This document shows, piece after piece, positions 3,542 through 63,462 of a stretch of 64,000 bases of DNA. This stretch comes from a virus (lineage: Duplodnaviria > Caudoviricetes). The notes beneath the pieces are model-generated. The model did not search any database. It was given only the letters and a program-made list of their open reading frames with translations, and was not told where the DNA came from. A program made the position numbers and the translations under genes. The DNA is taken from positions 160,001-224,000 of the IMG/VR virus record IMGVR_UViG_3300049988_000245. One strand, written 5' to 3'. Numbering within the stretch: position 1 is the stretch's first letter; every line of letters begins with the position of its first letter.

Positions 3542-3572
3542 AAAGGGCGGCGCCGAAAGCGCCGCCCTTTTT
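3542..3572. terminator. Bidirectional intrinsic terminator
   Basis: AAAGGGCGGCGC-cgaaa-GCGCCGCCCTTT between convergent genes. Confidence 0.9.
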
Positions 3573-3849
3573 ACATCCACCGAAGTTTGAACTCGAATGC
3601 CAGGGCCGTCTCGACCTCAAGCTGACGGTACCACGCTTTGCGCATCATACCCCACTTCAGATTGAGGCCCCGCCCCTCACACCAGAGAATGGGTTCGCAA
3701 TTATGGGCAATATCCATTGTCTCGCATTCAACATAGATGAGCGCGCGATTCTGACCCCTCTTGTAGATGTTCACAAGAAAGCTCCCATAATCGGGTTTCT
3801 TGTAGAGCTTGCCCTTGCCGCGCAGGCCCGCGCTTGGAAAATCCCACAT
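3571..3849 (-). CDS. Short paralogue of the FKxRW C-terminal motif family
   Basis: Ends LAFEFKLRWM. Start MWDF overlaps the upstream stop (TAATG). Confidence 0.7.
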   Translation of the reverse strand: MWDFPSAGLRGKGKLYKKPDYGSFLVNIYKRGQNRALIYVECETMDIAHNCEPILWCEGRGLNLKWGMMRKAWYRQLEVETALAFEFKLRWM

Positions 3850-4154
3850 TATCCGAATCTCATCTTGAAGCCGAACGCGGTGTTCTCGTCGGTGAACGTG
3901 AAGACGATGGTCGTGTGTCTGCATTCGAGCGTGAATTCGCCGACCGCCTCATCCCCTCGCATCCAATAGCCGATCGGCCCGCGCCCGAAGGCATGGAACT
4001 CCATGATCGGGTCATCGTACTGAATCCTTGTGGATTGCTGTTTCCCGAACATCCAGGGGATGGATTGCCCCGTGGTGGGTCGGGGCCACGATATCGCAAC
4101 GGGGTATGCGAGAATCGCGACAGTTTCCTTGATGTCGATTCGCTTCGCTGCCAT
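3849..4154 (-). CDS. FKxRW-family paralogue
   Basis: Ends FTFTDENTAFGFKMRFG. Confidence 0.75.
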   Translation of the reverse strand: MAAKRIDIKETVAILAYPVAISWPRPTTGQSIPWMFGKQQSTRIQYDDPIMEFHAFGRGPIGYWMRGDEAVGEFTLECRHTTIVFTFTDENTAFGFKMRFG

Positions 4155-4157
4155 CGG

Positions 4158-4742
4158 TCAAGTCCATGTCATACGAAATTCGAACGCAAAGTTGGGGTCC
4201 TTGAATCGCAGTGCACCTTTCCAGCGGACCACACCGTCGCCGTAACGGGCGATCGCCCAGGCATGGGCGGTTTCGCGGTTCTTCGTCAGCCGCACAGCAA
4301 CGGGAAAGTCCCGTGGGACGGATTCAAAGAACGCTTCGATTTCGGCGATCTCCTGCCGGAACGCCTCGTACGATCCGGTTAGGCCGACGCAGCGATAGCG
4401 CCAACCATCGGGGCTCCCCTGGGCGTGGTACCGGACTTCCCAGAGTGGACGCTGAACGGTCAACAAACTGTTCTCTCGGGCGACCTTGAACCGCCTCTCC
4501 TGAATCTGTCGCTTCGCCATCGTTTTCTTGCGCGATCCGCTCCGCGTCGGAGAGATGCCGAATTTTCCGATCGGGGCAAGATGACGATGCAGGAAGGCCA
4601 TCTCGGCGATCGTTGGAGCGGCCTGGACCGGCTCCCAGAAATGCTTCGACGATTCCGGGCAGGCGAAGCCTTGCGGACCCGGCCCGGTGCCGCGCCTGCG
4701 CTTGAGATCGTTCTTCGTTCGTGGAGTTCGAGAGGTCAGCAT
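4158..4742 (-). CDS. FKxRW-family paralogue with N-terminal extension
   Basis: Ends LRFKDPNFAFEFRMTWT. The ATG lies 6 nt below a -10 box. Confidence 0.7.
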   Translation of the reverse strand: MLTSRTPRTKNDLKRRRGTGPGPQGFACPESSKHFWEPVQAAPTIAEMAFLHRHLAPIGKFGISPTRSGSRKKTMAKRQIQERRFKVARENSLLTVQRPLWEVRYHAQGSPDGWRYRCVGLTGSYEAFRQEIAEIEAFFESVPRDFPVAVRLTKNRETAHAWAIARYGDGVVRWKGALRFKDPNFAFEFRMTWT

Positions 4743-4748
4743 GAATCC

Positions 4749-4776
4749 AGTGTAGACTGATTTTGATTTCGTACAA
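4749..4776 (-). promoter_or_regulatory. sigma70-like promoter, 16-nt spacer
   Basis: TTGTAC-N16-TACACT, then 6 nt to ATG 4742. Confidence 0.55.
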
Positions 4777-4808
4777 CGAATTTATTGCGCGATGATTAAC
4801 GAGTGTTT

Positions 4809-4816
4809 TATAAATA
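4809..4816 (+). promoter_or_regulatory. T4-late-like promoter TATAAATA upstream of hsp20
   Basis: Exact T4 late consensus, 4 nt before the first 5'-UTR hairpin. Confidence 0.55.
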
Positions 4817-4820
4817 CTTT

Positions 4821-6573: not shown

Positions 6574-6575
6574 GA

Positions 6576-8242: not shown

Positions 8243-8270
8243 AATGGCCGGGGAGAAATCCCCGGCCATT
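8243..8270 (+). terminator. Stem-loop, probable terminator
   Basis: AATGGCCGGGGA-gaaa-TCCCCGGCCATT just after the AAA stop codon. Confidence 0.7.
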
Positions 8271-8373: not shown

Positions 8374-9738
8374 ATGGCGGACATCAACGACCCCATTTAC
8401 CAGCTAATCGTCGCCGCGCGCGTCCAGCTACTTTTCGATAAGCCGTTCTTCGGCAACGTCGCCGCGCGCCTGATCCTCGTGGATGCCACGGACTGGTGCG
8501 GCACCGCCGCCACCGATGGCCGCCACCTCTACTACAATCGCGAGTTCATCAAGTCGCTCCAGAAGGACGAGTTGATGTTCCTCGTGGCGCACGAAATCCT
8601 GCACTGCATCTACGACCACCTTGGTCGGCGCGGCGGACGTGATCCGAAGCTGCTCAACATGGCGCAGGACTACGTGATCAATTACACGCTGATCGAGGAC
8701 CGCTGCGGAAAGATGCCCGACATGGGCCTTTACGATAAGCGCTTCCCCGACACGATGCTGTCCGAGGAGGTCTACGAAATCCTCAAGAAAGAGTCCGTGA
8801 CCATCCGGATGCCGCTCGACGAGCATCTGGACCTGCTCGGCGAGGACCCGAAGGACGATAAGGACGACGGCGGCGGCTCCGGCGACCAGAACGGCAAGGG
8901 CCAGAAGTACGTCGATGTCACCGTGATGGGCAAGAACGGCCCGCCCAAGCTGACCGAGGAGGACATCGCCAAGATCAGGTCGGAGATCAAGGCGTCGGTG
9001 ATCCAGGCCGCCCAGGCGGCCGGTGCGGGCAACGTGCCCCGTGGCGTCGCCCGGATGATCGAAGACCTGATCAACCCGAAGCTCGACTGGCGCACCCTGC
9101 TGGACGCGCACATTCGTTCGTCGGTGAAGGACGACTACACGCTCCAGCGGATGTCTCGCAAGACTTCGGCGCTCCGCTATGCGGCGAGCGAGGAGCAGAA
9201 CGCCCGTGCCATGGGCACGGCGGACGACGAGCATTTCGAGGGCGAGATGTCCGTCATGTCCGGCCTGGAGGATGACGACGACGCATCGTTCTCCGTGCCG
9301 ATGCTGCCGACCCAGGACTACATGAACACCGTGGACATCATGGTGGCCATCGATACGTCGGGCTCGATGACCGAGACGATGCTGCGTGACTTCCTGTCCG
9401 AGACCAAGGGGATCATGCAGACGTTCCGCGACTTCCGCGTCCGCGTCTGCACGTTCGACACCCAGCTTTACAACTACATGGAGTTCACGGGCGAGAATAT
9501 TGACTCGATCGATGACTACCCGATGGCAGGCGGCGGCGGCACCATGTTCGAGGCCGTGTGGGAGTACATGAAGCGCGAGGGTATCGAGCCCCACCGCCTC
9601 GTTCTGTTCACGGACGGTTATCCGAACTCCACCTGGGGCGACGAGGGCTACGTGGACACGCTGTTCGTGATCCACGGGAACAACCAGATCAAGGCCCCCT
9701 GGGGGATCACCTGCTACTACGAGGCCAACGAGGGCTGA
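8374..9738 (+). CDS. DUF2201-type putative metallopeptidase plus VWA-like domain (MoxR partner)
   Basis: TAATDG..YYN, FLVAHEILH (HExxH), AIDTSGSM (MIDAS), GGGGT.F, VLFTDGY. Confidence 0.9.
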   Translation: MADINDPIYQLIVAARVQLLFDKPFFGNVAARLILVDATDWCGTAATDGRHLYYNREFIKSLQKDELMFLVAHEILHCIYDHLGRRGGRDPKLLNMAQDYVINYTLIEDRCGKMPDMGLYDKRFPDTMLSEEVYEILKKESVTIRMPLDEHLDLLGEDPKDDKDDGGGSGDQNGKGQKYVDVTVMGKNGPPKLTEEDIAKIRSEIKASVIQAAQAAGAGNVPRGVARMIEDLINPKLDWRTLLDAHIRSSVKDDYTLQRMSRKTSALRYAASEEQNARAMGTADDEHFEGEMSVMSGLEDDDDASFSVPMLPTQDYMNTVDIMVAIDTSGSMTETMLRDFLSETKGIMQTFRDFRVRVCTFDTQLYNYMEFTGENIDSIDDYPMAGGGGTMFEAVWEYMKREGIEPHRLVLFTDGYPNSTWGDEGYVDTLFVIHGNNQIKAPWGITCYYEANEG

Positions 9739-9803: not shown

Positions 9804-10037
9804 ATGGCTTGCCCAAACATGCTCGACGAGGTTGTTCCGCTCGAAGTGATCGCCCAGGTGGCGGCGCGGTTAGACGTGCATCGGGTTACAGTTGGGCAAC
9901 TGTCGGCTATCCGCGCCCCAGAGGTGATCGCGTGGCTCAAGTCGGATGAGGCCGAGGGATCGCACCTGTCCGGTGCGGGGGAATGGTTATTCACCGACCT
10001 CGGTACGGCGATGGCGTTCAAATTGAGGTTCGGCTGA
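9804..10037 (+). CDS. FKxRW-family paralogue (array member 1 of 5)
   Basis: GAGGAG RBS; ends WLFTDLGTAMAFKLRFG. Confidence 0.75.
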   Translation: MACPNMLDEVVPLEVIAQVAARLDVHRVTVGQLSAIRAPEVIAWLKSDEAEGSHLSGAGEWLFTDLGTAMAFKLRFG

Positions 10038-10267
10038 TGTCCTGCGACCGCGCATGGTACCCGCCCACCCACAATGCGGTTGCGGGCTGGCCCATGGTCG
10101 AGATCACCGTGACCGAAGAGTCCTGGCCGGATATTGTCGATTGGATCGCCGGGGATGAGGCGCATGGGGAGTTCATCGACGGAATCGCGGTGTACTTCGA
10201 CCAAACCACGGCCCTTCGGTTCTCCGATCCGGACACGGCGTTCGCGTTCAAGATGAGGTTCGGGTGA
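10037..10267 (+). CDS. FKxRW-family paralogue (2 of 5)
   Basis: TGATG overlap; ends LRFSDPDTAFAFKMRFG. Confidence 0.75.
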   Translation: MSCDRAWYPPTHNAVAGWPMVEITVTEESWPDIVDWIAGDEAHGEFIDGIAVYFDQTTALRFSDPDTAFAFKMRFG

Positions 10268-10518
10268 TGGCCCTACTCCTCGCAGGCGCCCACGCGGCTC
10301 TGGAGCACAAGGTAATGGTCCCGCATGGGCGGTGGACCAAGATGCCGAACCCGATGAACCGCCGGATAGTCTCCCACGTGAGCCCGTTCGAAGGCCCATT
10401 CTTGGAATGGCTGAATGACCGGCCCGGTTCCTGGGACATGGAATCGCGGATCGATGGTTTGGAATTCGGGTTCTCAAATCGCGACACCGCGATGGAATTC
10501 AAAATGAGATTTGGTTGA
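10267..10518 (+). CDS. FKxRW-family paralogue (3 of 5)
   Basis: TGATG overlap; ends FGFSNRDTAMEFKMRFG. Confidence 0.75.
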   Translation: MALLLAGAHAALEHKVMVPHGRWTKMPNPMNRRIVSHVSPFEGPFLEWLNDRPGSWDMESRIDGLEFGFSNRDTAMEFKMRFG

Positions 10519-10802
10519 TGGACCGGAACGACCCTGCGGCGCACAAATTCATTGTCGGTCGGATCGAGCGCGAGGATATGCGATCGATCCTGTTCATCCT
10601 GCCCCATCACGAAAGCCGATTCCTGCTGGTGTTCGACTACACCGTCCAGGCGGATGGGAAGGGCTCTGCGTACGCACAGGAGATGTGGCACTGGATGGTC
10701 GAGCGCGGAATGGATTTGCAGCGCGATCAGCAGGCGTACTACGATTTTATGGCCTACGTGGATGCTGATCTGGCGATGGAATTCAAAGTCAGGTGGATGT
10801 AA
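10518..10802 (+). CDS. FKxRW-family paralogue (4 of 5)
   Basis: TGATG overlap; ends DADLAMEFKVRWM. Confidence 0.7.
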   Translation: MDRNDPAAHKFIVGRIEREDMRSILFILPHHESRFLLVFDYTVQADGKGSAYAQEMWHWMVERGMDLQRDQQAYYDFMAYVDADLAMEFKVRWM

Positions 10803-11092
10803 TGGCCAGCCAAGTAAAGATCGCCAACCTTCAAGACGAGCGCGTTGTCCAGGCGCAGATCGACGAAGCTATTGAGAAGGGATGGACGCGCGTCCATATC
10901 GGCCAACCCGTACATTGGCCGGAGGTGCATCGCTTTCTCGATGCCGCTCAGGGTAGCTACCTGACGGTGTCTCGAATCAACGAGACACCGGAAGTGTCCA
11001 CCGATCGGCAGTGGACGCAGTGGAAATATCGGCAGAACTATTGGTTCTCCGACCCCAACACGGCATTCGATTTTAAGCTCAGATACGGTTAG
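10802..11092 (+). CDS. FKxRW-family paralogue (5 of 5)
   Basis: TAATG overlap; ends YWFSDPNTAFDFKLRYG. Confidence 0.75.
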   Translation: MASQVKIANLQDERVVQAQIDEAIEKGWTRVHIGQPVHWPEVHRFLDAAQGSYLTVSRINETPEVSTDRQWTQWKYRQNYWFSDPNTAFDFKLRYG

Positions 11093-13571: not shown

Positions 13572-13877
13572 ATGCTGCCGGACAAGATTCATTTCACCGG
13601 CCTGGAGCTTGACCCAGAATCCGTGCTGACCCCGCGCAAGATGTTCAGCGGCACCTATCCGTCCTCATGGGTGCGCCATCAGTTCTCCCTGCCCAACGAT
13701 TCGTACGGCCATCTGCGCAAGATCGACCGTTGGATTGAATCGAACCTCGAAGGCCGCTGGGGCGCATACTCGGTCTACGCGTTCGGCAGCGTCACGTTCG
13801 TGATCGCGTTCGAGAAGGTCACCGACGCGGTGATGTTTCGTCTCCAGGGCGGTGAGCAGTCGTGGAAAGAGGGGTGA
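13572..13877 (+). CDS. Hypothetical protein, divergent FKxRW-like member
   Basis: GGAGG RBS; WIESNLEGRW..IAFEKVTDAVMFRL. Confidence 0.7.
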   Translation: MLPDKIHFTGLELDPESVLTPRKMFSGTYPSSWVRHQFSLPNDSYGHLRKIDRWIESNLEGRWGAYSVYAFGSVTFVIAFEKVTDAVMFRLQGGEQSWKEG

Positions 13878-15589: not shown

Positions 15590-15999
15590 TGGCACAGACA
15601 CCGTCTGGGATTTTTCAGCTTGAACTGAATACGTTCGAGACCAAGATGTTTGATCTTGGTAGGATGTTCTCGGAAAATGTTGGTCAGGTTAAGATCGACT
15701 TCTTTAAAAAGAAGATCACCGTCAACGTAATGGATGACGCCGAGGGGGCGGTTTTTAAGTTCCTCTCGAAGATTGCCGAAGATAAGGAGCGCGTCCTTCG
15801 GATCAAATACGGTGATCCAGTCGGATACACACTGGACTTTACCGGCACCGAAGTGGACTCCCACACATTCGATATGGGTGATGCGTACGAGGTCAAGAAC
15901 GCGCTTCTTGCCATCTCGACGCTCGCTGGCATGACCTATAACCAGACGCCGATGCACCACAAGATCGTGTTCTCGTACAAGGACAAGATTGCCAAATGA
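15589..15999 (+). CDS. Hypothetical beta-rich protein, possibly tail-tube-like fold
   Basis: TAATG overlap; alternating beta-strand pattern similar to 32985-33383. Confidence 0.55.
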   Translation: MAQTPSGIFQLELNTFETKMFDLGRMFSENVGQVKIDFFKKKITVNVMDDAEGAVFKFLSKIAEDKERVLRIKYGDPVGYTLDFTGTEVDSHTFDMGDAYEVKNALLAISTLAGMTYNQTPMHHKIVFSYKDKIAK

Positions 16000-16457
16000 G
16001 CACGGATTTCACCGCCATCGCCAAGGTGATGATCCCGAAAATTCGTCGGACCATGCCGTCGATCATCGCCTCAGAAATCATTGGGGTGTCTCCGATGACC
16101 GGACCGACCGCGAGCATCTACGCGCTGCGCGCCCGATACAGCGCGTTCACGGACGGCTGCTCCGGGATCGATTGCGGTTTCGGTCCGGACATGTCGCCCA
16201 CTTATGGGGTCATCTACGCAACCTGTGTGGACTTCCCGATGAACCATCCACTGCGGAATGATCCGCAAGCCGTGGTGACCTGGGCGCTTCAGAATTGCCG
16301 GAAGTCGTTCACCTACTCGACCGTGGTGATCGGTACGACAATGAATCCTCCGGAGACGGACGAGCGAATCATGAAGATTCGACCTGCCAACCGAGTATGG
16401 CGCTGGACATTCGCAGACGAGGATGATGCTTTCGGGTTCAAGGTTCGTTGGATGTAA
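15996..16457 (+). CDS. Fusion: T4 gp23 major-capsid-like segment plus FKxRW-family domain
   Basis: MIPKIRRTMPSIIASEIIGVSPMTGPTASIYALRARY matches the conserved gp23 segment. Ends WTFADEDDAFGFKVRWM. Confidence 0.75.
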   Translation: MSTDFTAIAKVMIPKIRRTMPSIIASEIIGVSPMTGPTASIYALRARYSAFTDGCSGIDCGFGPDMSPTYGVIYATCVDFPMNHPLRNDPQAVVTWALQNCRKSFTYSTVVIGTTMNPPETDERIMKIRPANRVWRWTFADEDDAFGFKVRWM

Positions 16458-16458
16458 G

Positions 16459-16719
16459 ATGAAATCGCGCGATTATAGTGTAGTCATAGAGGGAGATTAC
16501 GGAAACAACCATCGGTATGGATTCGACCTATACTTCAGCACCAATTGGGGCTACCCAATGTACGCGTGGTGTGAAGAACAGTTTGGCCCGCCTTATGACT
16601 CGACTACCAATCCCGATGGCGTATGGTCGCGCTTTCATCAGAGCGGTTGTATTCACTATGTACAGGTTCGATTTGAGCAAGTCGAATACGCCATCGCGTT
16701 CAAAATGCGTTTTCTTTGA
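16459..16719 (+). CDS. FKxRW-family paralogue
   Basis: AWCEEQFGP..W..VRFEQVEYAIAFKMRFL. Confidence 0.75.
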   Translation: MKSRDYSVVIEGDYGNNHRYGFDLYFSTNWGYPMYAWCEEQFGPPYDSTTNPDGVWSRFHQSGCIHYVQVRFEQVEYAIAFKMRFL

Positions 16720-16782
16720 ACCATTTTGGTTAGACTAATGCGACTGAATCCAGGGGCTTGCCAAAACAACACGGGTGCTCAA

Positions 16783-16788
16783 TAAATA
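16783..16788 (+). promoter_or_regulatory. TAAATA late-type promoter, leaderless spacing
   Basis: 5 nt between the motif and ATG 16794. Confidence 0.5.
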
Positions 16789-16793
16789 CCCGT

Positions 16794-17120
16794 ATGGTAG
16801 TCACGACCTTCCAGGCAGGACTCAAGGACCCCCAGCCCTACGTGGTGCGGATGAATCTGTACCGGGCGGGATATGACGACGTGCGAGGCACCCTGCTTGC
16901 GCGCTACGTCGAGTTTTGGTGTCAGAAGAACTGCATCGGCGAATGGCACATCGACCAGACCGCCCACCTGTTGACGGTTTCGTTCTCAGCCACGGTCGAT
17001 ACCGTACTGTTCATGATCTCCGAGGAATACACCTACTTCGTGCCATCGGCGACCACTCGCCCACACGCGGCGTTCGAGGGTCTTCCGGCGTTCACATTGG
17101 GATACACGATTGTGCTTTAG
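16794..17120 (+). CDS. Hypothetical protein, divergent FKxRW-like member
   Basis: FWCQKNCIGEW..VSFSATVDTVLF. Confidence 0.6.
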   Translation: MVVTTFQAGLKDPQPYVVRMNLYRAGYDDVRGTLLARYVEFWCQKNCIGEWHIDQTAHLLTVSFSATVDTVLFMISEEYTYFVPSATTRPHAAFEGLPAFTLGYTIVL

Positions 17121-23526: not shown

Positions 23527-23658
23527 ATGATTCAAGATTTGAAGGTTCTCGCCCTTGGCGTTGTTGTGGGTTGCCTCGCTCTGGCGGCGTGTTTTGCCAC
23601 GTACACGATGACGACCCCGGATGGTGCCGAGCGCGCCGCCTACGTCGAGGTCCCGTGA
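23527..23658 (+). CDS. Small membrane peptide (43 aa)
   Basis: Hand-translated MIQDLKVLALGVVVGCLALAACFATY..; GGAG RBS; TGATG overlap with agmatinase. Confidence 0.55.
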   Translation: MIQDLKVLALGVVVGCLALAACFATYTMTTPDGAERAAYVEVP

Positions 23659-24557
23659 TGGAAAAGCCGTTCCAGGGCCTTTCGACGTTCCTGAAGTCGC
23701 CCGTCAACGACGCCTCGCGCAAGATCGGCGTTATGGGTTTGCCGTTTGACGGCGCCACCTCGTACCGGCCCGGTGCGCGGTTCGCACCGAACGCGATCCG
23801 TGAAGCCTCCATGATGCTCACCGATGGCGGCCACCCGACGCTGAAGGTCGATCCATGCCAGTTCGTCACCGATCTCGGCGACGTGCCGGTGTCGAACCTT
23901 AATGTCGCAAAGAGCCTAGAGCAGATCGAGGAAGCGATTCATGCGAGCCCGTTCTACCGGGACCCGTCGAAGCGTCTTATGTTCATGGGCGGAGACCACA
24001 CGGTAACCACGGGAATCCTGCGCGCCATTGCGCCGGATCACGAAGACCTGCAAGTTCTCCATCTCGACGCCCATTGCGACACCTGGGCGGACCATTTCGG
24101 TGATCCGCTCGGCCACGGCACCTGGGTGCGCAATGTGGTTGAGGAGAAGCTGGTTAAGCCGGAGAACATCCTTCAGGTCGGCATTCGCTCGCCCGTGGAC
24201 CCGGAGACCCGCAACTGGCTTGGCGAACGCCATGGCCGGGTCATCTCGGCGCGTTCAGCCCTCAAGATGGGCGCCGATGTGATCGTTCAGAACCAGATTC
24301 CGAGGGACAAGCCCCTCTACATTAGCCTGGACATCGACTGCCTCGACCCCGCCTACGCCCCCGGTACGGGAACCCCTGAGATCGCCGGGCTGACCCCGCA
24401 TTTCGTCCTCGATATGCTGGAGAGCTTGAAGCACCACAACATTGTCGGGATGGACCTTGTTGAGGTCAATCCGATGTTCGATCCCACCAAGATCACCGCG
24501 CTCGCGGGTGCCACGTTCATGTGGACCGTGGCCAGCATGATGGCGTGGCTTCCGTGA
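23658..24557 (+). CDS. speB: Agmatinase (ureohydrolase family)
   Basis: GLPFDGATSYRPGARFAP..IR, GGDH, HLDAHCD, SLDIDCLDPAYAPGTGTPE, DLVEVNP. Confidence 0.92.
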   Translation: MEKPFQGLSTFLKSPVNDASRKIGVMGLPFDGATSYRPGARFAPNAIREASMMLTDGGHPTLKVDPCQFVTDLGDVPVSNLNVAKSLEQIEEAIHASPFYRDPSKRLMFMGGDHTVTTGILRAIAPDHEDLQVLHLDAHCDTWADHFGDPLGHGTWVRNVVEEKLVKPENILQVGIRSPVDPETRNWLGERHGRVISARSALKMGADVIVQNQIPRDKPLYISLDIDCLDPAYAPGTGTPEIAGLTPHFVLDMLESLKHHNIVGMDLVEVNPMFDPTKITALAGATFMWTVASMMAWLP

Positions 24558-38832: not shown

Positions 38833-38883
38833 CTTCGTCGATGCTCTTCTTCGAGGAATCGAAATTCTTATCCATGGGCGTAT

Positions 38884-40104: not shown

Positions 40105-40343
40105 CAGACCCACCGGAGCTTGAACATGAAAGCGTCCTGCCGATTGGTCAGATAGACGCGATCAAGCTTGAAATCCCAGCGTTCTTCAAAGTTGGTCACG
40201 AGCCAGTGCATGACCTTGTCGCATTGTTCTACAGTCAGGTACTCCGGACCAGGGTAGTAGAATTGATATGGGAAATCCTCCACCATGAAGTCGTTCATGT
40301 GTGTGCTTAGATCAGCGACGATGAAGCGGACCCCGTCACTCAC
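40104..40343 (-). CDS. FKxRW-family paralogue
   Basis: HWLVTNFEERW..LTNRQDAFMFKLRWV. Confidence 0.8.
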   Translation of the reverse strand: MSDGVRFIVADLSTHMNDFMVEDFPYQFYYPGPEYLTVEQCDKVMHWLVTNFEERWDFKLDRVYLTNRQDAFMFKLRWV

Positions 40344-41552: not shown

Positions 41553-42776
41553 TTAGAGTCGCAGGAGGTTTGCCACAACATCTGAGATATCGCGGCCTAC
41601 GCGTTGGAACTCAACCGGATTTCCATATTCATCGAACACCGCATGGTCGATCCAGTCGCAAAGCTGATCGCCAATCTGTATCTGGATGCGGCTGGATGGT
41701 TGGGCTACGCTGAGCGCTTCCGTGTTGTTGATGAACACCTCGGATTCGACCGACGTCATGAGGGCGCGAATGTCTCGGTTGAGCAGTTCCGAACGGCACA
41801 TGCTGTAGTGCTTGGCGAAGGATGAGTTCGTGAACGTGATCCGATAGTTCAAATCGAAGCAGCAGATCATGTCCACGCCATTGTCGCGCCGTGCTGCTGC
41901 CTGCTCGGCCGATCGATTCATCTCACTGGTGTCCTTGATCGTCACCAGACGGGCGGGGCGTCCTGCCCAGATGATACGGGTTCCGGTGAAGATCACCGAG
42001 ATGTGGTCGCCGTTGTTGTGCAGCCCCTGGGCGACGAAATGCGTATGGTCGTCGTTCGCCTCGACACGCTCAGCCTCGGAGACATCGAAGAGAATCGCGA
42101 CGGGGCGATTCATAATCTCTTCCGCATCATAGCCGAATAGCCGGGTCACCGCAGGATTCGCAGCAACGATCCGATCGTTCTGCTCGATCAGGATTCCATC
42201 GAACGATGCGTCGAACGCCGACTTGTATCCGCGATTGGCTTTCGAAGATTCCGAAAGGCCGACGATCGGCTCCATATTGCGGATGATCACCAGCATGGAG
42301 GATGACCCGTTGGACCAATCCAGCCGGGTGATCGAGGGTTCGATCCAGAACAAGGCTCCGTTCGGCCGTAGGCCCCTCAGAGGCTTGGGAGAGGTCGGGA
42401 GCCACGCGGAGCTTTCCTCGGCCATCCCCCACAGGGTGGAGGCGTCTGGAACCGCATCCGCACCATGCTGGAACAGATCGCAGACGTTAAGCCCGTTGAT
42501 GTCGGCCCGGCCGAACATCCGTCCTGCTGCGGGATTATACGACTGAACAGTTCCGTCCATCTCGGTCAGGAACAGCGCGTCGTTCATGATCCGCGCGGTA
42601 TGCTCAAACTGACGGATCGAATCATCGAGACGCGCTTTGAGGCAGATCGTTAGGTCTTGTGCCGCGTTGGCAGTCTCGGTAGCCGCCATCAGTAGAGAAT
42701 TTTGACTTACCGACATCAAGGCTTCGAGGTGGTCGTCGCGCTTCTGGCGTGTTTTCCGACTACCCCAACCGAACAT
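41553..42776 (-). CDS. Triple-PAS-domain protein without output domain
   Basis: Three PAS repeats: DALFLTEMDGTVQSYNPAAGRMFG; DGILIEQNDRIVAANPAVTRLFGY; DMICCFDLNYRITFTNSSF..WIDHAVFDEYG..EFQRVGRDIS. No H-box, HATPase or GGDEF. Confidence 0.88.
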   Translation of the reverse strand: MFGWGSRKTRQKRDDHLEALMSVSQNSLLMAATETANAAQDLTICLKARLDDSIRQFEHTARIMNDALFLTEMDGTVQSYNPAAGRMFGRADINGLNVCDLFQHGADAVPDASTLWGMAEESSAWLPTSPKPLRGLRPNGALFWIEPSITRLDWSNGSSSMLVIIRNMEPIVGLSESSKANRGYKSAFDASFDGILIEQNDRIVAANPAVTRLFGYDAEEIMNRPVAILFDVSEAERVEANDDHTHFVAQGLHNNGDHISVIFTGTRIIWAGRPARLVTIKDTSEMNRSAEQAAARRDNGVDMICCFDLNYRITFTNSSFAKHYSMCRSELLNRDIRALMTSVESEVFINNTEALSVAQPSSRIQIQIGDQLCDWIDHAVFDEYGNPVEFQRVGRDISDVVANLLRL

Positions 42777-43021
42777 CAAAATACATCCTTGTACACAGAA
42801 CCGCGTCGAATCTTATTTATCGCACTTGCAGTACAATTGAACCGTTTACAAATTGTAGATGCAGCTTCTAGACTTGCGCGAATCTCACGAACTTGGTCGT
42901 CGGTAAGTCGTCGAAGCGTTGGGCGAATGTCGTTTTTGACCAGTGTTTTTAGAAGAACCGAGATACGTATTTCCAGTCTCGATATGAACGATCCGATATA
43001 TTCCAGAGTAATCCAAAACAA
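42776..43021 (-). CDS. Small HTH protein (resembles C-terminal DNA-binding module of HNH endonucleases)
   Basis: RLTDDQVREIR..ICKRFN.TASAINKIRRG..YK; start uncertain. Confidence 0.5.
   Translation of the reverse strand: MFWITLEYIGSFISRLEIRISVLLKTLVKNDIRPTLRRLTDDQVREIRASLEAASTICKRFNCTASAINKIRRGSVYKDVF
42814..42819 (-). promoter_or_regulatory. TAAATA late-type promoter for PAS gene
   Basis: 37 nt above ATG 42776, with an AAGGA RBS between. Confidence 0.4.
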
Positions 43022-43464: not shown

Positions 43465-43887
43465 CTAGAGCCCGGAAGCCCATCGGAACTTGAAGAACAC
43501 TGCCATATCCTCGTCTGCGAAGGAGAATTTCAGCCCCTTCACATCTCGGGTGACACGGACTCCGAGGTCGGTCCATTCGTAGCGCCCGAAGATCGAGTAC
43601 TTTGCCTTGGCGTGTTCTTCGAGCCATTCCCGAATCTCGAACATGACGTCCGAATCTGGAACCTTGATGAGAACGCTGTGCTGGCAGAGATCGGGTCCAA
43701 CTATGTGCGAGACGAGCGCGGCCAGCGCTGGAAACGTCTCCCCGCCCTTCTTCTTCGTGTGAACAGTACCGTTCATCAGGTGGGACCATCGAAGTTTTAT
43801 GTCCGAGATTCCACCATGCGCAACTGCTGCGGCCATCGTTCCTTTCCCGGTGTGCCCCCACACGTCCAAAAGATTTTGGAGCCGCAA
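43465..43887 (-). CDS. FKxRW-family paralogue with N-terminal extension
   Basis: EWLEEHAKAKY..FSFADEDMAVFFKFRW; start uncertain. Confidence 0.65.
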   Translation of the reverse strand: MRLQNLLDVWGHTGKGTMAAAVAHGGISDIKLRWSHLMNGTVHTKKKGGETFPALAALVSHIVGPDLCQHSVLIKVPDSDVMFEIREWLEEHAKAKYSIFGRYEWTDLGVRVTRDVKGLKFSFADEDMAVFFKFRWASGL

Positions 43888-56468: not shown

Positions 56469-56990
56469 ATGAGCAGAACAGTTGATCCGTGGGGACGGGT
56501 TGTCCTCGATATCGGTGACCTCACCGAAATTCTCTATTCCGGCCTGAAAACCGATGACGTGTACGTGGCCGAAGGCGACGAGACTGCGCGGTTCAATGCG
56601 CTTTGTCGGGCCTGGGATCGGCCACAGTACGCTTTGCGGGTCCCGGAGGCCCCAGAGCACTCTCCCGAACAGGAGCACGCCACACGCGCCTCCCAATGGC
56701 TGGTCTGTGAGGAGCTACGCGGGATGAACGTGCGCGACTTTCTCATCAGCGCGTGTGCGACCGATGCTCAGCGGGAGCGGGTGAACGCGGAAATGGACCT
56801 TTATGAGGAACGCGAACTCGAACCCCTGCTTCAGACGATGATCTGTCTGGTCGAGCATTTCCGGGCGAACAAGGTGGTCTGGGGTGTCGGTCGTGGTTCG
56901 TCCGTGGCCAGCTACGTCCTCTACATGATCGGGATTCACAAAATCGATTCGATGAAGTACGGCCTGGAGATCGGGGAATTCCTGAAATGA
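56469..56990 (+). CDS. dnaE: DNA polymerase III alpha-like N-part (split DnaE small piece)
   Basis: RV..EMDLY..L..M..LV..FR...VVWGVGRGSSVASYVLY.IGIH.ID..KYGL...EFLK; only 173 aa. Confidence 0.85.
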   Translation: MSRTVDPWGRVVLDIGDLTEILYSGLKTDDVYVAEGDETARFNALCRAWDRPQYALRVPEAPEHSPEQEHATRASQWLVCEELRGMNVRDFLISACATDAQRERVNAEMDLYEERELEPLLQTMICLVEHFRANKVVWGVGRGSSVASYVLYMIGIHKIDSMKYGLEIGEFLK

Positions 56991-57301
56991 TCACGCATCG
57001 CGAGGTTCGCGTGACCATCACGGAGAAGACATATGATCCCGAGGATGGTGGCCCCGTGTTTATCCTCCGCGTAGGATTGTCCCGCCGCCGGGGGTTCAGT
57101 ACGATTCTGTACGAGAATTTAGAGGAACGGGATTCTGCGTCGATCTCCCCCGCGATACGGGATTGGTGCGTCGAACAATGGGCGGGGGAAGAGTTCTCCT
57201 TCAATCCGTTCGATGATGAAGAGGTGTGGGTCCGGAGCTTTGCCCAGGCGATGGCGTTCAAGCTGAGGTGGGACGGGAAACACGCCAGTGCTGGAACTTA
57301 A
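56987..57301 (+). CDS. FKxRW-family paralogue
   Basis: DWCVEQWAG..VRSFAQAMAFKLRW. Confidence 0.78.
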   Translation: MITHREVRVTITEKTYDPEDGGPVFILRVGLSRRRGFSTILYENLEERDSASISPAIRDWCVEQWAGEEFSFNPFDDEEVWVRSFAQAMAFKLRWDGKHASAGT

Positions 57302-57575
57302 GATCGTTATCCACGAGAAGGTCGCACCCGGATCGTTCCCGATCGAGGTTCGCCTTGATCTGACGGACGAATTCTTTATCAAATCCGGGTGGAGAAACAC
57401 CATCCATGCTCAGCAACACATGACCGATTGGTGTCGCGAACGCTGGGGCAAGACCACGGGCGAGACCTATACGCTCGAAGAGGCCCGATGGATGTTTGTC
57501 GGTAAGCGGTTCTACGTCCGCACCGAGGCCCAGGCGATCGAGTTGAAGATGCGGTGGCACGGGGCGACGCCGTGA
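57288..57575 (+). CDS. FKxRW-family paralogue
   Basis: DWCRERWG..RW..VRTEAQAIELKMRWHG. Confidence 0.78.
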   Translation: MLELKIVIHEKVAPGSFPIEVRLDLTDEFFIKSGWRNTIHAQQHMTDWCRERWGKTTGETYTLEEARWMFVGKRFYVRTEAQAIELKMRWHGATP

Positions 57576-57826
57576 TCGTCGTTCTTACGATCGAACAGCC
57601 TGAATCGACCGAGTTGATTTTCAGCCATAGCGGGAGTTTCAAGCATGGCTTGAACGCACAGAACCGCCGTGACATTCAAGATTGGTGCATCCATCAGTGG
57701 GGATTACCAACTCGGGATAGTGGCTGGGAAATCCACTATGCCGATGGGTACATATTTGTGCGTACGTCCGACCGCTCCGCCGGAATTAACGCGAAGATGC
57801 GTTGGCACGGCGTGTTGGACGACTAG
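57572..57826 (+). CDS. FKxRW-family paralogue
   Basis: GTGA overlap; DWCIHQWG..W..INAKMRWHG. Confidence 0.72.
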   Translation: MIVVLTIEQPESTELIFSHSGSFKHGLNAQNRRDIQDWCIHQWGLPTRDSGWEIHYADGYIFVRTSDRSAGINAKMRWHGVLDD

Positions 57827-58488: not shown

Positions 58489-58731
58489 TTACCACCATCG
58501 GAGTTTAAAATTAACCACATCCTGCTCTTCACGAAACAGGATGAAATAGGTCTGATGGCTCACGTCCCAATAGGGTGTCGCGCGATCAACCAGAAACTCG
58601 CGACACCATACGTGAATCTCTGGGTAAAAATCAACCTCCTGCGAGAGAATCGTTCGACCAGAATTTTGGAACTTGGGGATACCAAAGAATCTTGCCGCCT
58701 GCTCACGTGTGAGTTTAAGCTTTATGATCAC
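58489..58731 (-). CDS. FKxRW-family paralogue
   Basis: VWCREFL..ILFREEQDVVNFKLRWW. Confidence 0.75.
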   Translation of the reverse strand: MIIKLKLTREQAARFFGIPKFQNSGRTILSQEVDFYPEIHVWCREFLVDRATPYWDVSHQTYFILFREEQDVVNFKLRWW

Positions 58732-58808: not shown

Positions 58809-59108
58809 ATGGCCGAAGTCATTCGATTCAAATCCAAGAGCCATGCTCGGGACCTCGCGCTTCAGAAGCTCGCCCACCGTGTGCTGATCCACCTGATCGT
58901 TTCGTTCTATGATCGCGGGATCATGGACGTGCCGATCCAGGCGTACGTGAAAGAAATGACCAGCGCGCTGATCGCGGACGGGCACGCCTATGATCCGGTG
59001 GTGCTGGATTCTCTCGGGACCGACATCAACATTCTGAAGCGTCTCGAAGCCATGCTGATCAAGACGCTGGTCGAGCGCGGCCAGCTTCCGCCAGATTTCA
59101 AGGCTTGA
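58809..59108 (+). CDS. Hypothetical protein
   Basis: GGA RBS; helical pattern. Confidence 0.6.
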   Translation: MAEVIRFKSKSHARDLALQKLAHRVLIHLIVSFYDRGIMDVPIQAYVKEMTSALIADGHAYDPVVLDSLGTDINILKRLEAMLIKTLVERGQLPPDFKA

Positions 59109-59138: not shown

Positions 59139-59456
59139 ATGGCGAACCCGTATAAGCGCACCTCCACCCCGACGATCACCTACGTGGGCGAGTACGGCCA
59201 CGAGTCGTGCTTTCGTATTCACCTGCTGAAGGAAGAGGGGCTGAACGCGCTCCTGTTCCGGGGCGAGATCGCCGAGCATCTTCTGAAAGAGATGGTCGCC
59301 CACCGCCTGGGTAATTCGATCCGTGGGGTAGAGCTACCCGACAATCCAAAGAAGGCCGACTTCTTCCTGATGATCGACCGGTCTGAGATTCGGACATTCA
59401 CCAGTCGGTTCGAGGTGTCCGGGTACAGCCCCGATCTGGCCGGGGAGAGCGTCTGA
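59139..59456 (+). CDS. Hypothetical protein
   Basis: Directly below a promoter; TGATG overlap with the next gene. Confidence 0.65.
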   Translation: MANPYKRTSTPTITYVGEYGHESCFRIHLLKEEGLNALLFRGEIAEHLLKEMVAHRLGNSIRGVELPDNPKKADFFLMIDRSEIRTFTSRFEVSGYSPDLAGESV

Positions 59457-59782
59457 TGGCACCATGGATAAAGCCGCTACCGAGGAAAGTACCTGATCCG
59501 ATTCAACAATACGATCTCGTCTACGATTTCTATGAAACGCGTAGTCTCGATCAGAGGTCAGATGTCGTCCGGGCGTTTCTTGACTACGAATACATGTTCA
59601 TGCCAACACGACACGACGGATATTATTGGTCTCTCAGGATTTATCAGAGAGGTGTGCTGCTCAATCCAGCAATCCTATGGTGCAACGAACGCCTCGAAGG
59701 GACCAATTGGGTCCGGAAAGGCGAATGGATTTTCGTCCGTAACGAGATATCGGCGTTCGAGTTCAGGATGCGTTGGTGCTGA
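59456..59782 (+). CDS. FKxRW-family paralogue
   Basis: LWCNERLEG..W..IFVRNEISAFEFRMRWC. Confidence 0.78.
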   Translation: MAPWIKPLPRKVPDPIQQYDLVYDFYETRSLDQRSDVVRAFLDYEYMFMPTRHDGYYWSLRIYQRGVLLNPAILWCNERLEGTNWVRKGEWIFVRNEISAFEFRMRWC

Positions 59783-60236: not shown

Positions 60237-60814
60237 AGTCCGCTCCCACTTTGGTCGCGGCCACGCTGAGCCTTGATCATGCTGGCCATATCACCAAGGT
60301 GGAACGGCAGCACCTTGAGCGTGCGGATCAGATGCTTGCAGGCGATCCCCTTAAGCTGGGGGTTGCGGATGTGCGGGTAGCGATCCTCGTGGTAGATTGA
60401 GGCGTCCATCTGGTCGAGGATGTAATTGAATCCCCAGAACGTGAACGATGGGCAGTGGCAGTGAAGCTTGATGTCGCCGCCCCAGAGGAGCAGGCGCGCA
60501 GCTTCGTTCGCGTTGATCGACGGATCGTTGACCTGCTCGTCCCAATTGTTCCACTGAACGTACGTCTCCCAACCATTGTACTTGTTGGGGACGAAGAACT
60601 TCATGATGTTCGCCTTCGTGGTCACGTACTTGACGTGGGGAATCAGTGGTGCCCAATCGCGGAACGGGAGCTTGGCGTTCGTCGCACCTGCGACGCCGTT
60701 CGGCACGATTTCCTGCATCAGGTCTTTATAGTGAAGTTCGTCGAGGCGAGCGGGGACCTCGTCGCAGAAATAGCGCGCGGTGCTGCAATGAGCGTGTTCT
60801 GGGTGGCTGCACAT
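60233..60814 (-). CDS. SWIM-type zinc-finger protein
   Basis: HCHCPSF.FWG..RNP.LKG.ACKHL; ATG 60814 lies 5 nt below TAAATA. Confidence 0.8.
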   Translation of the reverse strand: MCSHPEHAHCSTARYFCDEVPARLDELHYKDLMQEIVPNGVAGATNAKLPFRDWAPLIPHVKYVTTKANIMKFFVPNKYNGWETYVQWNNWDEQVNDPSINANEAARLLLWGGDIKLHCHCPSFTFWGFNYILDQMDASIYHEDRYPHIRNPQLKGIACKHLIRTLKVLPFHLGDMASMIKAQRGRDQSGSGL

Positions 60815-61247
60815 GAGCTTATTTAGGAAAAAGGGCAAGACGATTCCCGGATTGTTCAACCGGTATCGCCGCAAGCAAGGAAAAGGCACGCCGCTGTTCT
60901 GGACCTGCGATAAGAAACTGTTCCACTACAGTGGAATCGACCAGTTCGATCATCACCTGTTCGACGCCTTTATCACGTATAAAGCGCCTCATTGCTTCGA
61001 GTGGGGAGCAGATTCTCCGAGCACCCTTTACATGCCGGTTCTCGATTGGATTCGAGAACACATGCAAGGCCGGGCGCTGTTCTCGTACGATCCAATGATC
61101 CTCAGCGGGTACATCCTGCTGGAACATCCCGACGACGCGTTTGACTTCCGGATGCGATTCTCTGAACCTCAAAGGGTCCTGCCGGACAAGAACGTGCAGG
61201 TGGAGGCGAAGCGGATCGTTGAGAAGTACGGGCTTGACGTACTATAG
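60813..61247 (+). CDS. FKxRW-family paralogue with C-terminal extension
   Basis: DWIREHMQG..ILLEHPDDAFDFRMRF; true start probably downstream of 60813. Confidence 0.65.
   Translation: MSLFRKKGKTIPGLFNRYRRKQGKGTPLFWTCDKKLFHYSGIDQFDHHLFDAFITYKAPHCFEWGADSPSTLYMPVLDWIREHMQGRALFSYDPMILSGYILLEHPDDAFDFRMRFSEPQRVLPDKNVQVEAKRIVEKYGLDVL
60820..60825 (-). promoter_or_regulatory. TAAATA late-type promoter, leaderless spacing
   Basis: 5 nt to ATG 60814. Confidence 0.55.
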
Positions 61248-61261
61248 ATTTGGTGTACATT
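61234..61261 (+). promoter_or_regulatory. sigma70-like promoter, 16-nt spacer
   Basis: TTGACG-N16-TACATT with GGTG before the -10 box. Confidence 0.6.
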
Positions 61262-61289
61262 GAGGAAATCAGCGACGAGGAGATACGAG

Positions 61290-62513
61290 ATGCACGAGTT
61301 CCGCACCCTCTTCCAGATTCCCGCCGATAACCTCGCCGTTTTCGAGGACAAGCTGGCCAAGCTGTCCAAACGTTCGGTCAAGATGGGCTGCGGCGAAATC
61401 CTCCCCTTCATCGCCTCGAACGAACTCAAGGATTTCGGCGACCACGGTAAGGTCCGGGTGTACAACGTCCACCTGCTCTGCGATCAGCCGAAGCTCGACG
61501 GCTGGGTGTTTGCCGCCCGCCTCGACCACTCCCAGGAGACCGGCACGATCGTTCGCTCGGTCCCGAACTTCGACCGTGAGATTCCGGCGAAGTACCGTGA
61601 TGCCGCTCCGCACTGCGATCACTGCAAGGTCCGTCGTTACCGCCGCGACAGCTACATCGTCTGCAACGAGGTGACCGGCGATTTCGCTCAGGTCGGCTCC
61701 ACCTGCCTCGCCGATTTCATGGGCCACGATGCGTACAAGGTCGCTCGGCTGGCCGAGTACCTGACCTGCGCTGGCGAGTATGCCCGCCTGGGTGAGCAGT
61801 TCATCGGTGGCGACCGCCGCTTCATCGACATGGAGGATTTCCTCAACAGCGCGGCCGGTGCCGTGCGGATGTACGGCTGGGTTTCGACCAAGTTCGCCCG
61901 CGAGTATGGGAATGTTGCTACACGTGACCACGCCGAGGGCAACACCTTCCGGGTTCCGGGCAAGGGTGGCTACTTCACCTGCAACGGTCAGTACGCGTTC
62001 TACGAGCCCACAGACGAGGACAAGGCGTTCGCCGCCGCTGCCGTGGCCTACGTGATGGCGTTCAACGAGAAGACCACCCTGAGCGAGTACGAGAGCAACG
62101 TGCTGGTTCTCGCCCGGTCGGTCTCGATCGAGTACCGCCACGCCGGTTTGGCCGCCTCGATCGTCGGCATCTACTGGCTCCACCTCAACCGCGAGGCCCT
62201 TCGCAAGGCCAAGCAGGGCAAGGGCGAGAGCGCCCATGTGGGTCAGCCGGGCGACAAGGTCGATTTCGGGGCCGCCCGCGTGACCTCGGCCCGCCCGACC
62301 GAGACCGACTTTGGCATGACCTACATCTACCGGTTCGTTACCGAGGAGGGCAACATCGTGGTGTGGTTCGCCTCGAAGAGCCAGCAGATGGCTCAGGGTG
62401 ACACTGTGATGCTCACCGCGAAGGTGAAGAAGCACGACGCCTACAACGGCACAAAGCAGACCGTGGTCACCCACGCGAAGTTCACCCTGGTCGCGCAGCA
62501 GCAGGCTGCGTGA
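61290..62513 (+). CDS. Conserved phage protein with CxxC/C motif and C-terminal OB-fold
   Basis: HCDHC...R.R..QVGSTCL; C-terminal HVG..GD.V..T.FG..Y.Y.F...GN..VWF.S..V.L...VK.H..Y.G.KQT; GAGGAG RBS. Confidence 0.75.
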   Translation: MHEFRTLFQIPADNLAVFEDKLAKLSKRSVKMGCGEILPFIASNELKDFGDHGKVRVYNVHLLCDQPKLDGWVFAARLDHSQETGTIVRSVPNFDREIPAKYRDAAPHCDHCKVRRYRRDSYIVCNEVTGDFAQVGSTCLADFMGHDAYKVARLAEYLTCAGEYARLGEQFIGGDRRFIDMEDFLNSAAGAVRMYGWVSTKFAREYGNVATRDHAEGNTFRVPGKGGYFTCNGQYAFYEPTDEDKAFAAAAVAYVMAFNEKTTLSEYESNVLVLARSVSIEYRHAGLAASIVGIYWLHLNREALRKAKQGKGESAHVGQPGDKVDFGAARVTSARPTETDFGMTYIYRFVTEEGNIVVWFASKSQQMAQGDTVMLTAKVKKHDAYNGTKQTVVTHAKFTLVAQQQAA

Positions 62514-62544
62514 CCCCAATCCACCTAAGCGTGCGGAGAGACCC

Positions 62545-62712
62545 ATGGCAGTGACCCAGCGTGACAAAGACGATTTCGCCGGATATCTCCGGAACTGCAC
62601 GGACCGTCAGGTTCAGGGCGTGTACGATAAGGAACGGGCCGCAAACCGCCGCGCCTACGCGAACCTTGCGGTCGCCGAAGCGAGCCGTCGCGGCATTCAG
62701 TTGGACCGCTGA
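62545..62712 (+). CDS. Small hypothetical protein (55 aa)
   Basis: Hand-translated MAVTQRDKDDFAGYLRNC..; GGAG RBS; TGATG overlap with the next gene. Confidence 0.6.
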   Translation: MAVTQRDKDDFAGYLRNCTDRQVQGVYDKERAANRRAYANLAVAEASRRGIQLDR

Positions 62713-63116
62713 TGCGCATCGACTTCAGCGATCTCGGCAACATCTGCACGCATATCTGCCAGAAAGCGAACTACCAGACGATCGGGGGCACACAGCAATG
62801 GGTCTCTTCGATCGAGGGTTTCGCCGTCCGTATCTCGTTCGGTAACCGTCAGGATCGGTGGATGCTGGCACTGGACGATGTCGCGATTGCGTTCACGCTC
62901 GATGTGGTCGTAACCCCCGAGGGCAACCCAGCCGAACGTGGTCTCGTGCGGTTCGGGGTGACATGGGGTGAGGCACGCGATTGCGTTTATTGGGGTGATC
63001 CGACTAAGGTTCAGGCGACCTTAGTTATGATGAAGATGCTCACCCCGAACGCGAGCGCGAATGAACACACCTACGCAGACTTCGCCGAAGCACGTGATCA
63101 CCCCAACGTTGAATGA
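62712..63116 (+). CDS. Hypothetical protein
   Basis: Coupled start with the preceding gene. Confidence 0.6.
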   Translation: MRIDFSDLGNICTHICQKANYQTIGGTQQWVSSIEGFAVRISFGNRQDRWMLALDDVAIAFTLDVVVTPEGNPAERGLVRFGVTWGEARDCVYWGDPTKVQATLVMMKMLTPNASANEHTYADFAEARDHPNVE

Positions 63117-63462
63117 GATCAGGGAACTGACGCGCGAGCACTTCGACTACCGAATCAACCTGCATCGAGAGATGAATGTGGATTACCACTCCCAGAAACA
63201 ACTCTGGGCCGAACTACGCAGCGAAATTCTACGCTGGTGTCGAGACAGATTCGGACCCGGTGCGCTCGGAATTGCGGTGAATCGTGATGAACCGGGCTTC
63301 CTGAAGTATCAGACGCAGTTCGTGAATCCGGAGATTGCCCGGTTCGAGTACGACATGGATGCGGGCTGGATATCGCGCGGATGGATGTTTTGGTTCAAGG
63401 ACGAAAACGCCGCGTTCGAGTTCAAGATGCGCTGGAAAGGCATGCGGGTCCTACCGGGGTAG
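63061..63462 (+). CDS. FKxRW-family paralogue
   Basis: RWCRDRFGP..FWFKDENAAFEFKMRW; start probably 63094 or 63109. Confidence 0.78.
   Translation: MNTPTQTSPKHVITPTLNEIRELTREHFDYRINLHREMNVDYHSQKQLWAELRSEILRWCRDRFGPGALGIAVNRDEPGFLKYQTQFVNPEIARFEYDMDAGWISRGWMFWFKDENAAFEFKMRWKGMRVLPG

Follow-up and report, generated by a model that had tools for sequence, protein, structure and literature searches.

Profile searches point to an undescribed, phage-restricted family of small proteins with 97 members in one jumbo-phage record

About a quarter of the genes on IMG/VR record IMGVR_UViG_3300049988_000245, a single 265,895-bp contig of 56% G+C, belong to one multigene family of small proteins (about 75-100 amino acids) which has not been described before and which is restricted to phages. 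The stretch analysed here, called the window throughout, is bases 160,001-224,000 of this record (64 kb). We suggest, tentatively and at somewhat less than even odds, that the family is a repertoire of specific protein binders built on one scaffold, which serves host takeover or counter-defence.

The shared C-terminal motif occurs far more often than chance would allow. The pattern A..[FLIM][KR][LMVF]R[WFY], sought within 40 residues of the end of each open reading frame (ORF), matched 20 ORFs of the window and 58 of the whole record, against 0-2 in each of 40 shuffled genomes, an excess of about 50-fold. A hidden Markov model (HMM) of 62 positions, seeded from these matches, iterated to convergence and read at E <= 1e-3, matched 97 ORFs of the record, and 1,997 reversed decoys gave it no match; an independent profile, made from an alignment of 77 members (A2) and run against the six-frame translation of the record, also gave 97 matches. 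The members thus fall into one profile, as they should if an initial annotation of the window, made from its letters alone, had seen a single family. Twenty-five of the 97 lie in the window, and to these we add a divergent 26th (16758-17120), which reaches only E 0.007 with the HMM but E 4e-9 with XYS97408 of Sinorhizobium phage Phosso, itself an HMM match. Where the initial annotation had counted about 27 paralogues, the family stands and the count becomes 25 by HMM plus this one; its estimate that they make up a fifth to a quarter of the genes was about right, since a crude gene call gives some 100 genes in the window and some 400 in the record, of whose bases the family occupies 9.5%. All members have intact reading frames, and the products would be soluble proteins. 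For several members the start is uncertain in this G+C-rich DNA.

The 97 members stand in 47 clusters on both strands, and at 21 junctions the stop of one member overlaps the start of the next (TGATG, TAATG or ATGA), which indicates that such neighbours are translationally coupled. In the window the HMM recovered the arrays first drawn at 3571-4742, 9804-11092 (five genes), 15996-17120 (its last gene by way of XYS97408), 32046-32572, 38596-40343, 56987-57826 and 58489/59456-59782, together with the single genes at 13572, 43465, 60813 and 63061 (Table 1). A fifth single gene, at 31389-31781, was not borne out (HMM E 0.5; hhalign probability 12%), and the ORFs interspersed at 38884-39495, 58809-59108 and 59139-59456 did not prove to be members. 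The extra domains which some members had been thought to carry are mostly unsupported: ten long forms contain no Pfam domain, and many of the long ORFs are over-extended starts. Real two-domain proteins do occur, one of them in this record, and they are tandem copies of the family domain itself.

The copies are old. The nearest paralogue of a member is at a median of 35% identity, the record holds no closely similar pair, and the nearest paralogue lies in the member's own array for 13 of the 97, against 2.6 expected by chance. Between a third and a half of the members in the relatives sampled are nearer to copies of this phage than to their own sampled paralogues, so that part of the expansion predates the split of these phages; and two window genes, 13572-13877 and 16758-17120, have positional orthologues in Phosso (XYS97406 and XYS97408), the former pair both adjoining the MoxR/VWA-RNA ligase block.

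Selection was measured on the arrays of two sister phages from metagenomes (L030 and L031). The pooled ratio of non-synonymous to synonymous substitution rates (dN/dS) over 15 orthologous family pairs is 0.11, with 0.12 for the variable N-terminal part and 0.076 for the C-terminal core, and 11 neighbouring genes give 0.095. Each copy is therefore kept by purifying selection, and these are real coding genes. The initial annotation had proposed a constant scaffold with hypervariable surfaces. The scaffold and the variable surfaces are borne out by the single HMM, by a modelled core shared at 13% identity and by the range of isoelectric points (pI) described below; the hypervariability is not, because dN/dS is low in both halves, as in the neighbours, and the diversity is therefore old and fixed rather than ongoing. 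These data argue against functionless filler and against ongoing hypervariation. Single array units have been gained or lost between the two sister phages.

We also compared contigs from four leaf and silage DNA runs (short, fragmentary pieces) with the window. In one contig from a silage metagenome, 39592 is joined to 39863, so that roughly one family gene is missing; its shorter side is only 23 letters long and we give it no weight. The skip begins and ends within the conserved C-terminal coding block of neighbouring paralogues, and it would fit the loss of a unit by paralogue recombination.

The profile columns of highest information are W25 (93%), C/L26, E/D28, G31 (75%), W/Y37, F48 and A54 (83%), followed towards the C-terminus by F55, F57 (89%), K/R58 (95%), M/L59, R60 (84%) and W/F61 (96%); a Y/F-P-H/Y-x-F strand is present in about half of the members. 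Nearly all conserved columns are aromatic or aliphatic, K/R58 and R60 being the only strongly conserved polar residues, and the two conserved blocks, W-[CL]-x-E-x-F-G and A-F-x-F-[KR]-[ML]-R-[WF], are mostly hydrophobic and probably form the core. The initial annotation had placed the motif usually 1-2 residues from the stop codon; in 79 of the 97 it does end no more than one residue before the stop, and the remaining 18 carry tails of 2-28 residues.

AlphaFold2 models of two members were built from the 77-paralogue alignment, which they largely share, so that the two are not fully independent. The model of the 38596-38832 protein (predicted local distance difference test, pLDDT, 85.7; predicted TM-score, pTM, 0.72) has the order beta-beta-alpha-beta-beta-alpha; that of the 10264-10518 protein, only 13% identical to it (pLDDT 79.5), has the same helix-strand-strand-helix C-terminal core and a less defined N-terminal part, as a common fold would require. 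The family domain would thus be a compact two-layer alpha/beta unit in which one or two N-terminal strands lead into a long helix ending in W-[C/L]-x-E-x-F-G, then a beta hairpin, then a C-terminal helix that carries A-F-x-F-[K/R]-[M/L]-R-[W/F]. A helical-wheel reading suggests that the hydrophobic motif residues lie on one broad face of this last helix and pack against the sheet. R/K60 co-occurs with E/D28 (odds ratio 3.9, p 7e-4, over 368 family domains, uncorrected for kinship), which fits a salt bridge between the two helices. The pI of the 97 members spans 4.05 to 10.9 (48 are acidic and 21 basic), and the copies do not share a common net charge. A homodimer prediction with two copies of the 78-residue member (A2 alignment) scored 0.01 against a mark of 0.42, which counts neither for nor against self-association.

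The statement in the initial annotation that it knew no named function holds against the databases. When 77 members were scanned singly against Pfam, PHROGs v4 and NCBIfam, no family matched more than one member and no match was significant; the family profile had no match at E <= 1 among PDB sequences, and Foldseek found none for the model in the PDB at E <= 0.001. Every convincing match in BFVD, in the AlphaFold DB clusters and in the ESM Atlas is to an uncharacterised protein, and those with a stated taxon are viral; for the Atlas model of the 38596-38832 protein (pTM 0.61) the nearest structural neighbours are uncharacterised viral clusters at TM 0.70-0.75. An exhaustive structural alignment (VIA-align) reached a best Z of 6.0, where the noise level of the tool is 7-8 and any Z below 8 may reflect a common arrangement. 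Among these generic likenesses is DCoH, or pterin-4a-carbinolamine dehydratase (1uso, 4low), which has the same beta-beta-alpha-beta-beta-alpha order, a four-stranded sheet bearing the two helices on one face. The scores are generic (1uso_B, Z 5.2, root-mean-square deviation 2.9 A over 62 residues at 3% identity; 4low_B, Z 4.9), there is no sequence relationship, and the family lacks a catalytic His motif. Other small two-layer alpha/beta sandwiches in this group are the ACT domains and the KipI N-domain. Phage cysteine proteases of the Prp type, weakly matched in BFVD (E 0.1-0.5) and in the Atlas, were rejected as relatives: Cys26 is present in only 45% of members (Leu in 30%), and the core has no conserved His column.

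Searched exhaustively with the profile, 1.84 billion cluster representatives yielded 4,270 clusters at E <= 1e-3; ten that were looked up had no name or only 'hypothetical protein', and the Atlas neighbours are 91-100% viral. By the A2 profile there are 97 matches in this record (266 kb), 56 in an IMG/VR fragment of 75 kb (G001), 37 in Phosso, 16 in a second IMG/VR fragment of 54 kb (G002), and three in each of Agrobacterium phage Atu_ph07 and Pseudomonas phage PA5oct; the same profile found none in the complete records of RaK2, GAP32, SCTP-2, Vibrio phage 2.275.O and Bacillus phage G. Phosso XYS97177, XYS97194, XYS97206, XYS97406 and XYS97408, Atu_ph07 AUZ95034 and AUZ95037, and PA5oct gp274 (QCG76155), gp275 and gp247 are true members that show the motifs of the family, and all are annotated as 'hypothetical protein'. 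A scan of prokaryotes with the C-terminal pattern (one genome per species, 185,579 species) found no relative, and on these sequences the family appears to be confined to phages. A tblastn search with one member gave no match in 50,697 phage records. Single sequences do not suffice for so diverged a family, and Phosso, Atu_ph07 and PA5oct came to light through profiles only.

Some members are filed at NCBI under 'MAG: Verrucomicrobiaceae bacterium' (a metagenome-assembled genome; RYD42747.1 and EOP83_ locus tags). As the family is otherwise found in phages only, these short contigs probably represent jumbo-phage DNA that was mis-binned; best matches to this MAG are reported in the AP-J-162 paper as well. 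Two large proteins, P0066 (a 1,176-residue helicase) and P0136 (a 1,239-residue AIG1-like GTPase-repeat protein), were considered as relatives and set aside, since only a W-C-x-x-N-F-G helix segment matches, repeatedly. P0066 has about eight repeats of the form L-K-N-A-L-E-I-Q-x-W-C-N-Q-N-F-G-D-K-E-I-W, strikingly like helix 1 of the family, and both matches are probably convergence at the level of the motif.

The window genes mark the phage as a T4-related jumbo myovirus. IMG/VR classes the record as a linear virus, and its completeness by CheckV is 57%; Phosso and Atu_ph07, the nearest relatives in culture, have genomes of 469-490 kb, so that the true genome may be about 470 kb and hold many more than 97 copies. 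The public DNA runs that contain the window stretch are leaf and silage metagenomes. Besides the genes in Table 1, the window encodes a T4 Rnl1-type RNA ligase and He_PIG, collagen-repeat and laminin-G proteins. The glutathionylspermidine synthase homologue and the arginase/agmatinase-family enzyme together suggest that the phage may manipulate polyamine metabolism.

The DUF2201 metallopeptidase/VWA protein, whose partner is a MoxR ATPase (Iyer et al. 2021), is 49% identical to its counterpart in Phosso, 40% to those of PA5oct-like phages and 39% to that of Atu_ph07. Many RefSeq phage records label this protein 'HNH endonuclease' or 'homing endonuclease', which looks like a propagated misannotation because Pfam finds no HNH domain in the window copy. 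The PAS-domain protein and the nucleotidyltransferase lie directly upstream of the 38596-40343 array, and the stop of the latter overlaps the start of the first family gene (40104-40343). Elsewhere, Phosso arrays are interleaved with transfer RNA (tRNA) genes and one PA5oct member adjoins a ClpP gene.

Table 1. Family members and other genes of the window. Positions count from its first letter; E-values are those of the family HMM unless stated; endings are the last residues before the stop codon.
Feature	Position	Strand	Remarks
Glutathionylspermidine synthase homologue	1668-2861	+	Window gene
Member ending AFEFKLRWM	3571-3849	-	E 6.9e-5; longest ORF to 3924, likely start an ATG overlapping the stop of the upstream member; followed by strong terminator-like hairpin
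Member ending AFGFKMRFG	3849-4154	-	E 5.9e-10; matches search pattern
Member ending FAFEFRMTWT	4158-4520	-	E 4.1e-8, domain at residues 153-193 of long ORF; start uncertain because the first 74 residues of the longest ORF (to 4742) look like non-coding read-through; no Pfam domain in long form
DUF2201 metallopeptidase/VWA protein	8374-9738	+	Pfam
First of five coupled members	9804-10037	+	E 6.1e-7; directly 3' of DUF2201/VWA gene
Member	10037-10267	+	E 2.5e-11; start overlaps preceding stop (cTGATG)
Member of KMRFG type	10264-10518	+	E 1.2e-11; second protein modelled
Member ending AMEFKVRWM	10518-10802	+	E 4.6e-10; start TTG 10515, ATG 10518 or ATG 10578
Member ending AFDFKLRYG	10802-11092	+	E 3e-12; TAATG overlap with preceding member
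Divergent member ending AVMFRLQGGEQSWKEG	13572-13877	+	E 2.8e-7; BLASTP E 3e-15 to Phosso XYS97406
Member with N-terminal extension of about 75 residues	15996-16457	+	E 3.6e-9; domain at residues 80-153; ATG overlaps upstream stop
Member ending AIAFKMRFL	16459-16719	+	E 2.4e-12; longest ORF from 16423
Divergent member, degenerate C-terminal motif and tail of about 30 residues	16758-17120	+	E 0.007; BLASTP E 4e-9 to XYS97408
Arginase/agmatinase-family enzyme	23571-24557	+	Window gene
Member ending ALEIKMRFG	32046-32306	+	E 2.1e-13
Member ending AKQLRMLFG	32303-32572	+	E 2.5e-7; ATGA overlap with preceding member
Compact 78-residue member	38596-38832	-	E 1e-13; first protein modelled
Member ending ALEFRLRWC	39572-39865	-	E 1.7e-11; TGATG overlap with upstream member
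Member ending AMDFRLRWC	39865-40104	-	E 3.7e-14; TGATG overlap with upstream member
Member	40104-40343	-	E 1.9e-13; start overlaps stop of the gene at 40340-41509
PolyA_pol/CCA-adding-type nucleotidyltransferase	40340-41509	-	Pfam
PAS-domain protein	41553-42779	-	Window gene
Single member, 4-residue tail	43465-43887	-	E 1.7e-9; domain at residues 69-136; start uncertain
Member of KLRWDG/KMRWHG plus short tail type	56987-57301	+	E 6.8e-11
Member of the same type	57288-57575	+	E 7.5e-14
Member of the same type, weaker motif GINAKMRWHG	57554-57826	+	E 1.7e-10
Member ending VVNFKLRWW	58489-58731	-	E 2e-12
Member ending AFEFRMRWC	59456-59782	+	E 6.2e-13; ATG overlaps stop of non-family ORF 59139-59456
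Member with 28-residue tail, motif therefore internal	60813-61247	+	E 7.7e-13
Member with insertion between helix 1 and strand 3, 8-residue tail	63061-63462	+	E 6.8e-15

Scans for sigma-70-type promoters and for terminators around the arrays stayed at chance level, and words of the T4 late promoter are rare. Hexamers enriched upstream of the 47 clusters were only Shine-Dalgarno-like, with no A+T-rich regions. Three long hairpins of 12-17 pairs, rich in G+C and with T tails, rise above this level at 3570-3542 (-), 8243-8270 (+) and 43060-43021 (-), the first of them directly after the last gene of the 4742-3571 array.

Under the reading that we favour, the variable N-terminal hairpin, the loops and the open sheet face of each copy would recognise a different host (or phage) protein, and these binders would act inside the infected cell in host takeover and counter-defence. 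The members are probably non-virion proteins: PA5oct gp247, gp274 and gp275 carry no electrospray-ionisation tandem mass spectrometry (ESI-MS/MS) virion note, and neighbouring structural genes do carry one. In related phages (L030, L031 and L032; 15767-18854) family arrays adjoin NAMPT and NadM-Nudix genes for the salvage of nicotinamide adenine dinucleotide (NAD), and a staphylococcal-nuclease-like gene. Counter-defence functions have been ascribed to NAD-salvage genes of phages, and the presence of such genes nearby might lend a counter-defence role some weak guilt by association. The effector or anti-defence function, which the initial annotation also proposed, is something that we infer.

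Several points weigh against this reading. The non-virion argument draws on three divergent members, all from PA5oct; K/R58, for all its conservation, is not explained if the conserved blocks serve only as core; and the co-occurrence of Glu28 and Arg60 is uncorrected for relatedness. The sister phages show no excess of amino-acid change and so not the signature of an ongoing arms race. Upstream of the arrays there is neither a promoter motif nor an excess of sigma-70 sites, and hence no support for 'early genes'; and among public runs, no RNA run contains the phage.

A more far-reaching form of the same idea, which we think unlikely, is a 'binder library' in which a single minimal alpha/beta scaffold would be diversified into 100-170 stable paralogues in every genome, each of them dedicated to inhibiting or modulating a host protein or defence system of its own. 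The breadth of the takeover would in that case come from the size of the repertoire and not from fast evolution, in a manner analogous to the effector arsenals of intracellular bacteria, and translationally coupled neighbours might act as hetero-oligomers.

We hold it similarly unlikely that the members are adaptors, in which the constant C-terminal K/R-M/L-R-W/F would dock on one phage or host machine (for example a Clp protease or the MoxR-VWA chaperone pair) while the variable part selects cargo or modulates the machine. Such docking would account for the two conserved basic residues, for the closeness of the motif to the stop codon in most members, for the array that begins directly after the DUF2201/VWA gene (an adjacency which recurs in Phosso) and for the PA5oct member beside ClpP. 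The initial annotation had likewise envisaged that members dock on a single shared partner by way of the basic-aromatic C-terminus, an idea now weakened: the first motif is internal in the natural two-domain proteins, 18 of the 97 end in tails, the hydrophobic motif residues would share one helix face that is likely packed on the sheet, and R60 co-occurs with E/D28 as an internal pair would. Adaptors retain the chance we give them because the conservation of K/R58 is unexplained.

Doubtful to a further degree are small nucleic-acid-binding regulators, that is gene-specific transcription factors or RNA-binding factors. The basic pair at the C-terminus, the array coupled to the CCA-adding/poly(A)-polymerase-type gene and the tRNA genes among the Phosso arrays would all suit them, and Iyer et al. 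proposed such a role for the zinc-ribbon expansion of phage G (PMC7824862). However, acidic proteins (pI < 6) make up half of the family and basic ones only 21 of 97, the structural matches single out no nucleic-acid-binding fold, and Pfam gives no helix-turn-helix, zinc-ribbon or other DNA-binding match.

Improbable, in our view, is a set of virion-packaged internal proteins ejected with the DNA, like the inner-body or internal head paralogues of other large phages. Paralogous sets of head-internal proteins occur in other giant phages, and the shared motif could serve as a packaging signal; yet the three PA5oct members have no virion note, and the N-termini are the most variable part of the proteins and show no common targeting or cleavage motif. 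The idea that the copies are functionless filler, duplicates that enlarge the genome to fill a larger capsid, has the proposal of tandem duplication as a route of jumbo-genome growth (Hua et al. 2017, PMC5646251) and the turnover of array units behind it, but is largely refuted, and left with the slightest of chances, by a dN/dS like that of the neighbouring genes, the lack of recent duplicates at a median nearest identity of 35%, the orthologues retained in this phage and Phosso, and the intact frames.

Whether or not the proposed repertoire of binders is the right reading, a quarter of the genes of this phage and thousands of metagenomic clusters belong to a family that has no name, no Pfam or PHROGs model and no recognisable fold relative. 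Selection maintains each copy, so that the phage evidently has need of about a hundred different versions of a single small domain, and an explanation of that need would account for a large share of jumbo-phage 'dark matter'. Should the members be binders of host proteins, they would be a ready-made set of natural inhibitors. Their function is directly testable, because three phages that are in culture with their hosts encode members: Phosso on Sinorhizobium meliloti, Atu_ph07 on Agrobacterium tumefaciens C58 and PA5oct on Pseudomonas aeruginosa PAO1. The family HMM would also improve the annotation of these phages.

We found no description of the family in the literature, and the publications consulted on Atu_ph07, a Sinorhizobium jumbo phage and PA5oct do not mention it. 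The expansion of paralogues is already known as a phenomenon; what is new is the family and its size. Phages G and 121Q have more than 30 similar genes in arrays (Hua et al. 2017, PMC5646251), and the zinc-ribbon expansion of phage G, of about 35 copies, was called 'unprecedented' (Iyer et al. 2021, PMC7824862). Like those arrays, the family described here is one small-protein family multiplied many-fold and arrayed in a jumbo myovirus, and it likewise has no assigned function. It is a different protein family, whose A2 profile gives no match in phage G, RaK2 or GAP32, and its copy number, well above the 30-35 or so of the jumbo-phage expansions in the literature consulted, is about three times that of the phage G/121Q arrays (97, in a record rated 57% complete), which makes it the largest single-family expansion that we have found reported for a phage. 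Where the phage G/121Q copies are 'very similar' and stand in one array, those of this family are deeply diverged and are spread over 47 clusters on both strands.

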